This document shows positions 12,415 through 17,491 of a DNA stretch of 64,000 nt, piece after piece; position 1 is the stretch's first letter, and every line of letters begins with the position of its first letter. A program made the translations under genes and the position numbers. A model generated the notes under the pieces. It had not been told where the DNA came from and did not search any database. It worked only from the letters and a program-made list of their open reading frames with translations. The stretch comes from Trueperaceae bacterium (GTDB lineage: Bacteria; Deinococcota; Deinococci; Deinococcales; Trueperaceae), in the NCBI GenBank assembly GCA_040905465.1, contig JBBDRK010000036.1, positions 73,244 through 137,243 on the forward strand, written 5' to 3'.

Positions 12415-12557
12415 GCGGTGAACTCACGGCGACACTGTCAATGCGACATGTCAAGGCAACTCGGTAAAGGCGACTGGGTCAAGTCGACTGGGGTTACGGC
12501 GACTGGGTCACGACCACGACAGGGTCAAGCCGACTGGGTCAAGCCGACTGGGTCACG
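12415..12557. repeat. Degenerate ~14-bp tandem repeat, about 10 units (consensus SCGACTGGGTCAMG)
   Basis: Units such as GCGACTGGGTCAAG (12470), GCGACTGGGTCACG (12499), CCGACTGGGTCAAG (12530), CCGACTGGGTCACG (12544); more degenerate leftwards. Confidence 0.85.
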
Positions 12558-13641
12558 GTGCCTGGCCGGGGAGCAGAAGCGGGCCGTCCATGCCAGGCAA
12601 TACCGTAAACCCATCGAACTGAGTCACCAGCGACCCGGCGGCCTCGCCGACCTGCACGTCCGACTGCCGGCCCGCGGGGAGGTAGATGAGGAGGTGTCCC
12701 GGACCTATCTCGGCGTTTCGGTAGTGGTTGCCGTTCACGAACACCACCAGGTCAGCAGGACCGGCGTCGTACTCGAGCTCCAGCCGGACGATCTGGCCAC
12801 GTGCCTCGCTGGCGCTCACGCCGGCAATCGTCAACGACGAGCGCGGCATGCTTCCGTCGGCGCGCCAACTCCCGGTCTCCGGTGTGATCCAGCCGCCGTC
12901 CTGAATCACATAGTGACCGGCGTCGTCCAGTGCCGTGGCCATGACCAACTGCTGCGCTTCGCTGCTGTCGGTGTGCAGTACCAGTTCGCTCGTGCCGGGC
13001 TCCAGCGTGAGGACCTCGCCGGTGGTGCCGGCCAGCCGTGGCAGCACCGTGAGCCTGGTGGGCACCTCCAGCAGGACGTTGAGCTCGAATCCGCCGCGCG
13101 GCTCACGGTTCACCGTGGCACGTCGCAGCGTCCGGGGCAGACGGCCGAACACCTGAGCCACCAGCGTCTCGCCCCCGGCTCCTGTCGCCACTCCGAATCC
13201 GACATGGGTGTAGCCGGTATGCAGGAGCGCCGCGCGATGTCCCGGGCTCTCCAGCCAGCCCTGGACCGCCGCCGTAGCCACGTCCTGGGGTCCCCGCAAC
13301 AGTGCCAGGTTCTCGCCGGCCGTCACGCTGGGCACACCGGCGCGAGCCAGTCGGCGCGAAAGCGAGGAGCTTTCGGGGCTGGGGCTGCTGTGTGAGAAGT
13401 AGGCGAGGTTTGCCATCTCGATGGCGTGGGCGCGCGCCGCTCGCGCCAGCCCTTCGTCGTGGCCGAGGGGCGGCAGGCCATGCCGGGCTCTGGCTTCGTT
13501 AGTGGTCACGAGCAACGCAGCTTCCGCTGGCCCACTGCTTGGTGGGTCGGTCACAACCGGAAGACCGTTGGCGGCGGCGACCGACAGGAACAAGAGCAGA
13601 ACGACGAGGCGGGCCACGAGGCAGTGTACGGCCGGCTCCAT
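12553..13641 (-). CDS. Secreted CAP (SCP/cysteine-rich secretory) domain protein
   Basis: Signal peptide; NEARARHGLPPL, AHAIEMA..YFSH, GENLA, WLESPGHRAALL. Confidence 0.85.
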   Translation of the reverse strand: MEPAVHCLVARLVVLLLFLSVAAANGLPVVTDPPSSGPAEAALLVTTNEARARHGLPPLGHDEGLARAARAHAIEMANLAYFSHSSPSPESSSLSRRLARAGVPSVTAGENLALLRGPQDVATAAVQGWLESPGHRAALLHTGYTHVGFGVATGAGGETLVAQVFGRLPRTLRRATVNREPRGGFELNVLLEVPTRLTVLPRLAGTTGEVLTLEPGTSELVLHTDSSEAQQLVMATALDDAGHYVIQDGGWITPETGSWRADGSMPRSSLTIAGVSASEARGQIVRLELEYDAGPADLVVFVNGNHYRNAEIGPGHLLIYLPAGRQSDVQVGEAAGSLVTQFDGFTVLPGMDGPLLLPGQAP

Positions 13642-13718: not shown

Positions 13719-13748
13719 TTGACAGCCGGGGTCCCGCCCCACTATCGT
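13719..13748 (+). promoter_or_regulatory. Sigma70-type promoter of the RIO kinase leader
   Basis: TTGACA (13719-13724), 18-nt spacer, TATCGT (13743-13748). Confidence 0.6.
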
Positions 13749-13778
13749 TGCCGCAACCTCAGGAAAGGTGGTGGTGTC

Positions 13779-13856
13779 ATGGGCATCCCGAAGATTGTCT
13801 TCTTACGTTTCGACAGGCACGCGCGCCTTTCCGTACCGTCCAACCCTCACAACTGA
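13779..13856 (+). CDS. Putative 25-aa leader peptide MGIPKIVFLRFDRHARLSVPSNPHN
   Basis: AGGAAAGGTGGT SD-like element just after the promoter, then ATG; lies inside a structured leader. Confidence 0.55.
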   Translation: MGIPKIVFLRFDRHARLSVPSNPHN

Positions 13857-13970
13857 CGGCCGAGCCGAACTGCTCGATCTGAAAGGCGGCGCCCCGCATC
13901 GGGGCGAGTGGCCCGATCTGTCGCGGCCTCCGCGTGTCCCCCTGCCCGACCCATTCATCGGAGGACACGC
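13811..13970 (+). promoter_or_regulatory. Structured 5' leader with an SD-sequestering helix (putative translational attenuator)
   Basis: Complementary pairs 13811-16/13918-23, 13824-31/13881-88, 13836-40/13855-59, 13861-65/13872-76, 13890-96/13900-06; GCGTGTCC 13932-39 pairs with GGACACGC 13963-70, overlapping the GGAGG SD. Confidence 0.55.
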
Positions 13971-14834
13971 TTGAAGCGAGTTGATTACGAGTTCGGCGAC
14001 AGCGAGGAACGCTTCGCCCGCCGCAAGGACCGGCGCGTTCCGCGCGGGCACGTCCGGAAAAACGACCTGCTGGTCGACGAGGAGTACGCCGTTGCCAGCG
14101 GCCGGCGATTCACCGATCCCGAGTTGCAGCACCTCTACGAGCGACGCAAGATCGACGAGTTGCTCGGCGAGGTCAAGGGCGGAAAGGAGGCGACCGTATA
14201 CCTGGTCAGTGGCCCCGAGGGTCTCATGGCGGCCAAGGTCTATGCCGACCTGCGAGTGCGCGCGTTTCGAAACGACGGCGTCTACCGCAACGGGCGCTGG
14301 ATCGGCGACCCACGCATCGAGAAGGCGATCAGTCAGCGTAGCGCTCAGGGGCTCGCGGCTCAGCAGGACCTGTGGGTACTGCACGAGTACGTTCAGTTGT
14401 GGGAGCTCCACGACGCGGGGTTGCCGGTGCCGAAGCCGATGATCGGACCGGACAAGGTGGACCTGGCCGACGCCGGTCGGGTAGTCCTGATGGAATACGT
14501 CGGCGATGACAGCGGCCCTGCCCCGCGACTGTCCGACGTTCGCCTCGAGGCGGCCGAGGCGCGAGCTGCGTTCGCGCAGAGCGTCGAAATCGCCGCCTCG
14601 CTGAATGCGCTGGGAAAGGTGCACGGCGACCTGTCGACCTACAACCTGCTTTGGTGGCAGGAAAAGGTGGTGGTTATCGACTTTCCGCAGATGGTAGACC
14701 TGACCGAAAACCCCGACGCGCTGAAACTGCTCGAGCGCGATGTCGTCAACCTGTGCCGGACGTTCCGGTCCCTGGGTATCGACGCCGACGCCAGACATAC
14801 CCTCGACACGGTTCGACGCGAAGGTGCCGGATGA
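13971..14834 (+). CDS. RIO1-family atypical Ser/Thr kinase, copy 1
   Basis: GGKEATVY, AAKVY, VHGDLSTYNLL, VIDFPQ, LLERDV; GGAGG plus TTG start. Confidence 0.9.
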   Translation: MKRVDYEFGDSEERFARRKDRRVPRGHVRKNDLLVDEEYAVASGRRFTDPELQHLYERRKIDELLGEVKGGKEATVYLVSGPEGLMAAKVYADLRVRAFRNDGVYRNGRWIGDPRIEKAISQRSAQGLAAQQDLWVLHEYVQLWELHDAGLPVPKPMIGPDKVDLADAGRVVLMEYVGDDSGPAPRLSDVRLEAAEARAAFAQSVEIAASLNALGKVHGDLSTYNLLWWQEKVVVIDFPQMVDLTENPDALKLLERDVVNLCRTFRSLGIDADARHTLDTVRREGAG

Positions 14835-14949
14835 CGCTGGCCGGACGACGGAAGCGGTTCGACCCGGTCCGCCAGCGGCTCCCCGGGCAGGCGGCAGACC
14901 GCGACCCCGCTCCCGGTGATCGGCCGGCGGCGACCCTATGGTGAAGACG

Positions 14950-15405
14950 ATGAGCGACAGAGCTGAACGCAAGTACAACCAGGAGGAGCGGGACCTGTTG
15001 ATGGACGCCGCAGCCACGGTACTGTTGGCCACCGTAGCTGCGGATCGTTCGGGACCGGTAGAGTACTTCGCCGAGATGACGGCCGCCGGAACATTCCTAT
15101 ACGAGGCTCGGGGCCGTTACCGGGACAACGCCTTGGTGCAGGAGCTCTACGGGCGCCAGGAGGAGAATGGCACGGCGCCGGAGCCCGAGAGCGTTACCCA
15201 GGAGACGCTCCTGAGCAACATCGACAGGGTCTCCGGGCTGCTGAGACGAGACCGGGAAGGAATCGAGTTCCGGCGCTTCCTGCTCGAGCTGGCGGAACGG
15301 GTGGCGAAGGCGTCGAGAACCGGCTGGTTCGGTCCCCGCGTTTCGGCAGAGGAAGAAAAGTTCCTGGCCGACTTGCGACACCGGCTGGGCCTGCCGGAGC
15401 AGTGA
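14950..15405 (+). CDS. Hypothetical helical protein, possibly TerB-like
   Basis: C-terminal AERVAKAS..GWFG.RVSAEE..FL..L...LG pattern; leaderless -10 TATGGT at 14937-14942. Confidence 0.6.
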   Translation: MSDRAERKYNQEERDLLMDAAATVLLATVAADRSGPVEYFAEMTAAGTFLYEARGRYRDNALVQELYGRQEENGTAPEPESVTQETLLSNIDRVSGLLRRDREGIEFRRFLLELAERVAKASRTGWFGPRVSAEEEKFLADLRHRLGLPEQ

Positions 15406-15454: not shown

Positions 15455-16327
15455 GTGAGCGACGACGACTTCGACGGTAGCGAGGAGCGCTTCGGTGGCC
15501 GCAAGGACCGCCGGCGTCCCAAACGTGGCCGGCAGCGCAGTGAGTTGGTCGGCACCGGCGAGGCCGGCGACCGCTCCGACTTCGCCGACGCGGGACTTAG
15601 CGCGCTCCATGCCCAGGGAGCCCTGGTGTCGCTGGGGCGTCAGGTCCGCGGCGGCAAGGAAGCCACCGTCTACCGGGCCGAGGGTCCGGAGGGCCCGCTG
15701 GCGGCAAAGGTCTACAGCGACGACGAGGTGCGAGGCTTCCAGGCCGACAAGGCGTACCTGGAGGGTCGCCGGGTGTCCGACCGGCGAGTACGCAAGATGC
15801 TCGGCGACGCGCGCCGTCGGGGACTGAGCCCGCGACTCGCTCACTGGGTCTTTCACGAGTACGTGATGCTATGGCGACTGTTCGAGGCCGGCTTCACGGT
15901 GCCGCGGCCGGCGGTAGGTCCGGAAGCGGACCGGCTGGTTGCGGCCGGCCGGGTAGTGCTGATGGAGTGGATCGGCGACGACGAGCCGGCCCCGCGCCTG
16001 GCGGACACTCAGCTGGACCCCGCCGAAGCGGAAGCGGCATGGGCACAGTCACGAGGTCTCCTCTTGGATCTGCTGAAGGAGGGACTGGTTCACGGCGACC
16101 TTTCTACCTTCAATCTTCTCTGGTGGCGGGAAGGGATCGTGCTGATCGATCTGCCGCAGACGGTCGAGTTCGAGCGTAACCAGCACGCGGCCGAGCTCCT
16201 CGAACGCGACGCTCGCTCGCTGTGCTCTTCGTTCCGCTCGTTCGGCATACAGCAGGACCCGGTACAGCTCCTCCTCGACGTTCGGCTGGCGGCCGGTCTG
16301 CCGCCGTCCGGTCCGCTGACCCGCTGA
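15455..16327 (+). CDS. RIO1-family atypical Ser/Thr kinase, copy 2
   Basis: GGKEATVY, AAKVY, VHGDLSTFNLL, LIDLPQ; leaderless -10 TATACT at 15444-15449. Confidence 0.9.
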   Translation: MSDDDFDGSEERFGGRKDRRRPKRGRQRSELVGTGEAGDRSDFADAGLSALHAQGALVSLGRQVRGGKEATVYRAEGPEGPLAAKVYSDDEVRGFQADKAYLEGRRVSDRRVRKMLGDARRRGLSPRLAHWVFHEYVMLWRLFEAGFTVPRPAVGPEADRLVAAGRVVLMEWIGDDEPAPRLADTQLDPAEAEAAWAQSRGLLLDLLKEGLVHGDLSTFNLLWWREGIVLIDLPQTVEFERNQHAAELLERDARSLCSSFRSFGIQQDPVQLLLDVRLAAGLPPSGPLTR

Positions 16328-16405
16328 GGAGGGCCGCCGGTCCTCCAGAGACGATTGTCGTTGCGGTTGCGTCTCTCCCGCTTGACTCCACCTACGCTAT
16401 GTCCC

Positions 16406-17491
16406 ATGGTTAGCGAACCGAGGGCGGGGATTCGAGAAGCAGGACTTCGCTATGTGAGCGACGACAGAACCGGCATCAGCCGACGGCGACGCGGCAAGGG
16501 CTTCAGCTATCACCGTTCGGATGGAGAGCTCATTCGCGATCCCGACGAGCGCCGGCGGATCGATGGCCTGGCGATCCCGCCTGCATATCGCGACGTCTGG
16601 ATCTGCCCGGATGCGCGCGGCCACCTGCAGGCCACGGGCAGGGACGACAAGGGGCGCAAGCAGTACATCTATCATCCACAGTGGCAGGTGTTGCGCGGTC
16701 GGAACAAATTCGAACATCTGCTCACTTTTGCCGAGGTATTGCCTGGCATCCGCCACCGGGTACAGCGTGACCTCGGCCGCGAGGGGATGTCACGCGAGAA
16801 GGTGCTGGCCGCGGTGGTGACCCTGCTGGAATCGACGCTGGCCAGGGTCGGCAATACCTCTTATGCCCGCGACAACGGTTCCTACGGGCTCACGACCATC
16901 CGCAAGAGACACGTGGAGGTCGATGAGAATGCCGTGGTGTTCGAGTTTCAGGGCAAGGGCGGCCAGGAATGGCGGGTGCAGACGGACGACGAGCGGATCG
17001 CGGAGGTAGTGCGGCAGTGCGTCGAGATCCCGGGTTACGAGCTTTTCAAGTATTTCGACGACCAGGGCACGAAGCGCGACGTCGACTCCGGAGATGTGAA
17101 CGACTATCTGCGCGAACTTGCCGGGAAGGAGATCACTGCCAAGGACTTCCGGACCTGGGCGGGCACAGTGCTGTGCGCCGAAGCGCTCTGCGAACAACCG
17201 TTCGCGAGCGACAGCCAGGCGCGCAAGAACGTCGTGGCGGCGGTGAAGAGGGTTGCCGGCACGCTCGGCAACACCCCCAGTGTGTGCCGTGAGAGCTATG
17301 TGCATCCCGTCGTGATCGAGACCTATCTGGAGGGTGCGCTGGTCGAGTCGCTGCGAACCGAGGCGCCTCGGAAGATAGCGGCGGCCGATGAGCAGGCGCT
17401 CTCCGGCAACGGCAAGGCCGGCGGACGATTGCTCCGCGGGATCGAGGCGGGAGTCCTGCGGTTGCTCGGCCTGCGGGCCGGGAACAGTTGA
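16406..17491 (+). CDS. DNA topoisomerase IB (bacterial, poxvirus-like)
   Basis: LQATGRD.KGRKQY.YH, RVGN, KDFRTW, LGNTPSVCRESYVHP (catalytic Tyr); -10 TACGCT at 16393-16398. Confidence 0.93.
   Translation: MVSEPRAGIREAGLRYVSDDRTGISRRRRGKGFSYHRSDGELIRDPDERRRIDGLAIPPAYRDVWICPDARGHLQATGRDDKGRKQYIYHPQWQVLRGRNKFEHLLTFAEVLPGIRHRVQRDLGREGMSREKVLAAVVTLLESTLARVGNTSYARDNGSYGLTTIRKRHVEVDENAVVFEFQGKGGQEWRVQTDDERIAEVVRQCVEIPGYELFKYFDDQGTKRDVDSGDVNDYLRELAGKEITAKDFRTWAGTVLCAEALCEQPFASDSQARKNVVAAVKRVAGTLGNTPSVCRESYVHPVVIETYLEGALVESLRTEAPRKIAAADEQALSGNGKAGGRLLRGIEAGVLRLLGLRAGNS

Follow-up and report, generated by a model that had tools for sequence, protein, structure and literature searches.

A conserved leader open reading frame with a predicted self-masking Shine-Dalgarno sequence upstream of bacterial RIO kinase genes

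What governs the expression of a bacterial RIO kinase is the question raised by positions 13719-13973 of a 64,000-nucleotide (nt) stretch of Trueperaceae bacterium DNA (GenBank assembly GCA_040905465.1, contig JBBDRK010000036.1, positions 73,244 to 137,243 of the forward strand), referred to below as the window. The region lies between a divergent CAP-domain gene (12553-13641, minus strand) and a gene for a RIO1-domain kinase (13971-14834), here called RIO-A. A first-pass annotation of the letters alone had proposed that a leader peptide and an RNA switch gate this kinase in the manner of the ermC and cat translational attenuators. On balance, we favor the view that the region supplies the RIO-A messenger RNA with its promoter and 5' leader, as one member of a conserved class of translated leaders that has apparently not been described before. 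We read the leader as translated, ribosome-sensing, and of new architecture, a reading that rests on sequence comparison and modelled folding. Its best-supported predicted structure pairs the Shine-Dalgarno (SD) sequence of a short upstream open reading frame (uORF) with a segment inside that same frame, so that the uORF would mask its own ribosome-binding site.

The elements of the leader are as follows, all on the plus strand, with helix lengths in base pairs (bp).

13719-13748, plus strand: sigma-70-type promoter, with TTGACA at 13719-24, an 18-nt spacer, and TATCGT ending at 13748 (10/12 consensus positions)
13762-13771, plus strand: extended SD sequence of the leader ORF (uSD), with GGAAAGG at 13762-68 and 8/9 SD-core positions matched; 5' arm of the self-masking helix, whose partner is 13824-32
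13779-13856, plus strand: leader ORF (uORF) of 25 codons, from ATG at 13779 to TGA at 13854-56, encoding the peptide quoted in the first-pass annotation
13816-13833, plus strand: segment 1, the anti-uSD within the uORF, whose core (13824-32) pairs with the uSD or with segment 2
13881-13888, plus strand: segment 2, SD-like, just 3' of the uORF stop and 8/8 complementary to 13824-31
13890-13906, plus strand: G+C-rich hairpin of 7 bp with a 3-nt loop, directly 3' of segment 2, in all predicted states and without a U tract
13927-13939, plus strand: pyrimidine-rich arm with two overlapping anti-SD options, 13927-32 (to 13959-64) or 13932-39 (to 13963-70)
13960-13973, plus strand: kinase SD (GGAGGA, 13960-65), 5 nt, and TTG start (13971-73)
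13971-14834, plus strand: RIO-A, RIO1-domain kinase of 287 amino acids (Pfam PF01163)

An SD-led uORF is conserved upstream of RIO kinase genes

The promoter, the SD sequence, the 25-codon uORF, and the helices listed in the first-pass annotation were all recovered at the positions given there, and every pairing is fully complementary (13811-16/13918-23, 6/6; 13824-31/13881-88, 8/8; 13836-40/13855-59, 5/5; 13762-68/13826-32, 7/7). Exact complements also occur at the kinase start, where GCGTGTCC (13932-39) matches GGACACGC (13963-70) and CCTCCG (13927-32) matches CGGAGG (13959-64). Between 13300 and 14300 one promoter-like site was found versus 0.1 expected from 50 shuffles, and the transcript is predicted to start near 13755.

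Loci from related genomes were oriented on the kinase, and their upstream regions were searched for start codons preceded by a near-consensus SD sequence. We counted 49 distinct Deinococcota loci of the RIO-A type for which 300 nt or more of upstream sequence was available, and 43 of them carry an SD-led uORF (42 with an SD of at least 7/9 and one with 6/9). An equivalent TTGACA-type promoter is present in 34 of 42 orthologous leaders, versus 1.0 expected, with the end of its -10 element 22-43 nt 5' of the uORF ATG. Conservation of the uORF in orthologues was the test that the first-pass annotation had suggested for itself, and on this point its prediction was borne out. The uSD lies approximately 5-15 nt from the predicted 5' end, and the match to the promoter consensus suggests that the RIO message begins with the uORF as its first cistron. 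The arrangement extends beyond the phylum: at least 23 Chloroflexota RIO loci also carry a uORF, and in a broader sample of Deinococcota and diverse Chloroflexota, 50 of 77 further RIO loci were positive under loose criteria. A single narrow pattern scan for the leader gave 10 hits, eight of them on contigs already recognised as RIO loci.

Within its own genome (3.53 Mb, both strands), the leader is close to singular. There are 32 ATG ORFs of 8-50 codons with an SD of at least 8/9, of which only two have the promoter, the RIO-A leader being one of them; the other 31 strong-SD short ORFs fall mostly inside longer frames, and no copy of the leader was found before another gene of this genome. 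Since the uORF is conserved together with its promoter and only two such sites exist in the genome, the arrangement is not chance and, in this genome, is specific to the RIO-A gene. The length of the uORF is also conserved, at 14-25 codons in Trueperaceae (median, 18; interquartile range, 16-20) and 39-52 codons in Deinococcaceae. The 16S rRNA 3' end is the canonical anti-SD in four of five complete genomes of the family, and therefore the uSD is a long complement to it, with one internal mismatch in the window; the 16S rRNA 3' end was not found in the 81-contig assembly from which the window comes. Rfam returned no family for the leader at E values up to 10, and two weak matches fall elsewhere.

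The uORF Shine-Dalgarno sequence is complementary to the uORF that it serves

Complementarity was tested against 200 dinucleotide shuffles per leader. In the window, the duplex between the uSD and segment 1 has an energy of -19.8 kcal/mol (p 0.045). Across orthologous leaders, pairing of the uSD with the uORF body has a mean z of -1.66, with p<0.05 in 15 and p<0.2 in 33 of the 42 leaders, and when leaders are grouped by genus, 18 of 19 genera fall below 0 (Wilcoxon p 7.6e-6). The control, 150 ordinary strong-SD genes of the same genome, gave a mean z of 0.06 with 4% at p<0.05. Each uSD also prefers its own uORF to the uORFs of other leaders, by a mean of -2.37 kcal/mol and with the own uORF in the top quartile in 25 of 42 cases. 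The first-pass annotation had listed the pairing of 13826-32 with the uORF SD as an alternative fold; it emerges here as the best-supported helix across the family, with no counterpart in ordinary genes.

The position of the anti-uSD is as regular as its complementarity, always 8-38 nt 5' of the uORF stop and in the last third of the frame, where it shares bases with the stretch that can pair beyond the stop. When the window is compared with its same-genus orthologue (G002), 13811-29 is the best-conserved block of the uORF, with 18 of 19 columns identical and 13817-29 identical throughout. In modelled transcripts ending at 13835, 13860, and 13910, the lowest-energy fold is the one in which the uSD pairs with segment 1. 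The same helix is found in Chloroflexota (mean z, -2.22; p<0.05 in 18 of 23 leaders), and there the bases from the SD core to the ATG change together with their pairing partners.

RNA complementarity, not the peptide, is kept

Several comparisons suggest that translation of the uORF counts for more than its peptide. Even the same-genus orthologue has a peptide with an unlike N terminus, so the sequence is not conserved at genus level, and in genus g14 the five leaders agree on a length of exactly 18 codons while their peptides are dissimilar. Across 34 leader peptides, no residue exceeds 1.5-fold enrichment and no runs of regulatory codons occur. Peptides are alike within families f2 and f5, and the residues that do recur are those that the anti-uSD segment encodes. 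The first-pass annotation had remarked on a resemblance of the N terminus to the ErmCL peptide; the lack of peptide conservation within the genus indicates that this resemblance is due to chance.

Two further uses of the uORF were considered and rejected. An amino acid-sensing attenuator of the trp/his type was set aside for the lack of codon runs in the leader peptides. The kinase and the uORF share one reading frame in the window with a single TGA between them, and read-through would append 64 residues to the kinase; stop-codon read-through was dropped on finding two stops in two orthologues (G002 and G016) and an out-of-frame arrangement in a third (G015).

In most genera, a post-stop segment competes for segment 1

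Segment 1 has a second possible partner beyond the uORF stop. Across the family, pairing between the uORF tail and the post-stop region has a mean z of -1.26, with p<0.05 in 10 of 34 leaders and 14 of 17 genera below 0, and in an alignment of genera g14 and g15, three post-stop pairs are altered on both sides. The two states of the window are near-isoenergetic, at -89.9 kcal/mol for segment 1 with segment 2 versus -86.2 kcal/mol for the uSD with segment 1 (3.7 kcal/mol apart), and the two pairings alternate as the modelled transcript grows. The minimum-free-energy fold of the full leader contains 13824-31/13881-88, 13836-40/13855-59, and the helix 13932-39/13963-70 that occludes the kinase SD. 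As a whole, the leader is predicted to fold no more stably than its shuffles (z -1.04; 29 of 200 shuffles equal or better).

A probable difference in output among lineages

The step by which the leader might act on the kinase appears to differ among lineages. In Chloroflexota, intrinsic terminators follow the uORF in 18 of 23 leaders, versus 4.3 expected. In Deinococcus and family f5, the uORF stop lies 15-21 nt before the kinase ATG, and this short gap makes translational coupling probable there. In the window, a 114-nt, mildly C-rich spacer separates the uORF from the kinase, and the plus strand has no terminator-like site. The genome has a rho gene (581 bits) and an RNase J gene. Our best guess for the window is that the output would be transcript elongation or stability, through Rho-dependent termination or protection of the 5' end, and not SD unmasking; both are candidates only.

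By our own start-picking rule, TTG is the kinase start in 38 of the 49 RIO-A-type loci. We read this conserved TTG, together with the SD hairpin specific to the genus, as features that keep the kinase start weak constitutively.

The neighborhood of the kinase start shows further local arrangements. In Deinococcus (L026-L028), a G+C hairpin of 5-6 bp holds the kinase ATG in its 6-nt loop, 15 nt past the stop of a 39-40-codon uORF. In g14 and g15, the TTG start lies in the loop of a 7-8-bp hairpin. The low-G+C genus g2 (L006, L077, L068, and L070) has a second SD-led mini-ORF near or overlapping the kinase start, and in two of its loci (L006 and L077), a conserved hairpin and a U-rich tract follow the uORF ahead of the kinase start, with one compensatory change that distinguishes the two loci. 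Two of the RIO-A-type loci without an SD-led uORF, both from Trueperaceae (L012 and L010), carry mini-ORFs that lack an SD and have a 4-nt overlap at the kinase TTG; the mini-ORF of L012 begins a few nucleotides after a TTGACA/CATACT promoter and may therefore be leaderless. The rho gene (contig C66, 22105-23334, minus strand) has an open frame of 606 amino acids versus a family model of 415 positions, which suggests a long N-terminal extension.

A proposed mechanism and the evidence against it

The conserved core is a self-contained unit at the 5' end of the message: a short ORF behind a strong SD, with an anti-SD inside it and an SD-like decoy past its stop. In our working model, such a leader would sense ribosome occupancy. 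The self-masking helix would be barred when a 30S subunit or 70S ribosome sits at the uORF start codon and its uSD, and likewise while a ribosome is moving over segment 1; without ribosomes, the uSD would shut onto segment 1 once that segment has been transcribed. Whichever pairing prevails would then fix the amount of full-length, translatable RIO message, and lineages would couple the core to different outputs, terminators in Chloroflexota and probable translational coupling in Deinococcus and f5. It is possible, and we offer it tentatively, that the leader is dedicated to sensing ribosome trouble at the initiation stage (ribosomes stuck at the start codon, or a scarcity of 30S subunits whose mature 16S 3' end is free to bind the extended SD) and that this sensor is common to RIO genes of at least two bacterial phyla, with lineage-specific outputs through a terminator, translational coupling, or Rho and message stability. 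If this were true, small subunits that are defective or stalled would both induce bacterial RIO kinases and be what these kinases act on, as is the case for their eukaryotic relatives.

Several results weigh against a ribosome-sensing leader or limit its generality. Six of the 49 RIO-A-type loci have no SD-led uORF, and the leaders were drawn from related genomes, their counts not being independent of one another. Where the transcript starts, whether the uORF is translated, and any regulation by the leader are matters of prediction. The 13824-31/13881-88 helix of the window is not above chance by itself (p 0.76), and the own genus gives a z of +0.86. No complementarity above chance connects segment 2 with the downstream region (mean z, -0.31; 3/32), and pairing of the uORF tail (1/24) and of the uSD (0/24) with the kinase-proximal 70-80 nt is at chance. 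The first-pass annotation had proposed folding the leader with and without a ribosome footprint. In the window, no footprint model opens the kinase start, its 8-bp helix being closed in every state and the forced alternative approximately 19 kcal/mol worse; among the 34 leaders, predicted accessibility at the kinase start shifts by over 0.1 in 3 when the footprint is forced on the uORF start, in 1 when it is on segment 1, in 3 when it is at the stop, and in 5 when it covers the whole uORF. Canonical intrinsic terminators in Deinococcota leaders are at chance (3/34 versus 2.6 expected), and in Chloroflexota, pairing of segment 1 with the 5' arm of the terminator shows a weak trend (mean z, -0.52; 2/18 at p<0.05). 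The C richness that would favor Rho (C/G of 1.25 in the window, with a family median of 1.30 and values above 1.3 in 17 of 34 spacers versus 11% of control upstream regions) is measured against a crude control drawn from one genome.

Alternative explanations

A translational attenuator of the ermC/cat type, the mechanism that the first-pass annotation had favored, would work through a ribosome stalled by a drug on the leader peptide: the segment thereby released would pair with the anti-SD arm, leaving the kinase SD open. Some observations from the window and its genus are in line with it: the 8-bp helix 13932-39/13963-70 occludes the kinase SD in the lowest-energy fold of the window, with p 0.085 for the kinase start region paired with its upstream 60 nt, an equivalent helix exists in the same-genus orthologue (p 0.04), and the genus (g1) is the most negative of 17 genera (z -1.72). 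When the modelled transcript ends at 13945, the anti-SD arm finds its partner in the conserved 5' portion of segment 1, and a start-codon footprint lifts predicted accessibility by 0.11 in the same-genus orthologue. Across the family, however, occlusion of the kinase SD is at chance (1/34 leaders at p<0.05; mean z, -0.17; genus-level Wilcoxon p 0.68), as are local folds around the kinase start (mean z, -0.06). Against the mechanism also stand the lack of complementarity linking segment 2, the uORF tail, or the uSD to the kinase-proximal region, the hairpin that stays closed in all footprint models of the window, and a peptide that differs within the genus and has no conserved arrest motif. We consider this mechanism unlikely.

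The leader could instead be a constitutive 5' element without sensing, in which the SD and short ORF load ribosomes and stabilise the message or drive coupled translation, and self-pairing damps the uORF. This is rather unlikely. A self-contained module with no pairing to the kinase region would suit it, as would a uSD so close to the predicted 5' end in a genome with an RNase J gene, and a uORF that ends 15-21 nt before the kinase ATG in Deinococcus and f5, with that ATG in a hairpin loop in Deinococcus. However, a plain stabiliser needs no anti-uSD at a fixed place (18/19 genera), no competing post-stop segment, and no conserved uORF length, and it does not account for the terminators added in Chloroflexota. 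That the uORF is an independent small-protein gene, for example for a kinase partner or substrate, and merely co-transcribed is very unlikely: its strong SD, its ATG, its conserved presence beside RIO-A genes in two phyla, and the similar peptides within f2 and f5 would be expected of such a gene, whereas between genera, and also within g14, the peptides have become unrecognisably different although uORF length and RNA pairing persist, and the recurring residues come from the anti-uSD segment. Chance, which would make the ORF spurious and the helices random products of G+C-rich intergenic DNA, is scarcely tenable. An open frame of 25 codons is often expected at 65% G+C, and the unremarkable whole-leader fold agrees with it, but chance is contradicted by the uORF at 43 of 49 loci, by promoters in 34 of 42 leaders versus 1.0 expected, and by the presence of only two such sites in the genome.

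The kinase, its paralogue, and their distribution

RIO-A matches the Pfam RIO1 family PF01163 with 109.4 bits (cutoff, 22; E value, 2.2e-31) and scores under the cutoffs of both named NCBIfam RIO equivalogs. Its nearest solved structure is Archaeoglobus Rio1 (1zp9; E value, 2.6e-15), and the nucleotide-binding and catalytic motifs align; the motif alignment was made on 12ez, also Archaeoglobus Rio1, whose matched region equals that of 1zp9 in score and extent. K89, D220, N225, and D237 are invariant across 13 RIO-A sequences, and we take them to be the nucleotide-binding lysine, the catalytic-loop Asp and Asn, and the metal-binding Asp, all of which are retained in RIO-A.

A RIO-A kinase occurs in 28 of 41 related genomes (by family, 19/24, 4/4, and 4/4, with 0/4 in each of two further families of the order). 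At E values of 1e-40 or below, the kinase was found in 103 of 128 genomes of the family, a tally that counts one unpublished genome of which no sequence was read. More distant relatives of the kinase are mostly from Chloroflexota. A second RIO paralogue, RIO-B, lies at 15455-16327 and matches PF01163 with 92.7 bits. The two RIO-B-type loci of other genomes (L011 and L016) have no uORF and carry upstream instead a homologue of a 155-amino-acid ORF that in the window lies between RIO-A and RIO-B (14938-15405, plus strand) and has no match in Pfam or NCBIfam, and therefore RIO-B and this ORF look like a conserved pair. Directly 3' of RIO-B is a gene for a bacterial type IB topoisomerase (16355-17491, plus strand).

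To our knowledge, bacterial RIO kinases have no established function. In the literature searched, we found nothing on bacterial RIO proteins acting on small ribosomal subunits. By analogy with archaea and eukaryotes, we infer that bacterial RIO kinases may act on ribosomes; eukaryotic and archaeal Rio proteins are reported to act on small ribosomal subunits (PMC11045238). In Deinococcus radiodurans, the RIO gene DR2209 is listed among the genes most strongly repressed in an oxyR mutant (Table 4 of PMC2225504), and therefore its expression is clearly regulated.

Comparison with known leaders

The first-pass annotation had known of no description of such a control element, and our search agrees: the literature searched on bacterial and Deinococcus RIO kinases, leader peptides, attenuators, uORFs, and DR2209 describes no such leader. 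Among the closest known systems are the ermC, cat86, and cmlA leader-peptide translational attenuators. Like the RIO leader, these place a short, SD-led ORF close to the promoter and let the RNA of that ORF pair in alternative ways; in the window, the SD of the downstream gene also lies in a hairpin, as in these attenuators. The RIO leader differs in that it has no conserved arrest peptide and no supported chain of pairings to the kinase SD, and its conserved helix masks its own SD, a feature that is not part of the ermC model as we know it. The trp, his, and thr leader-peptide transcription attenuators also combine a translated leader ORF with competing hairpins, both of which are predicted in the RIO leader, but the latter has no regulatory codon runs and, in Deinococcota, no terminator.

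Two further systems are also close. The rli80-hflXr leader of Listeria is a ribosome-dependent transcription attenuator in which a 14-codon ORF lies over an anti-anti-terminator; occupancy of this short ORF by a stalled ribosome selects the structure, and the controlled gene encodes a ribosome-associated factor (PMC6310831). Intrinsic terminators likewise occur in Chloroflexota RIO leaders. In the RIO leader, however, the anti-anti element would be the SD of the ORF itself, no motif of the RLR type is present, Deinococcota leaders lack a terminator, and the controlled gene is a RIO kinase. In toiL-topAI of Escherichia coli, a uORF senses several classes of ribosome inhibitors, and control involves occlusion of the ribosome-binding site and Rho-dependent termination (PMC12121999). 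Resemblances to the RIO leader are a generic uORF that needs no single arrest motif, an occluded start of the main gene, and a possible role for Rho (a candidate only, given a rho gene and C-rich spacers). Stalling on toiL remodels the structure of the main-gene ribosome-binding site, whereas no such link was detectable in the RIO leader.

The architecture thus proposed goes beyond the textbook attenuators as we know them, with a sensing ORF that would mask its own ribosome-binding site and an SD-like decoy past its stop. We know of no system among those compared that uses the SD of a leader ORF as a competing arm or that controls a RIO kinase. A translated leader that would read ribosome occupancy precedes RIO kinases across Trueperaceae, Deinococcaceae, and Chloroflexota, and its conservation before these genes therefore offers a testable regulatory link between the kinase and translation. 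The occurrence of this leader here and in most related genomes suggests that the RIO kinase is tuned to the state of the ribosomes.

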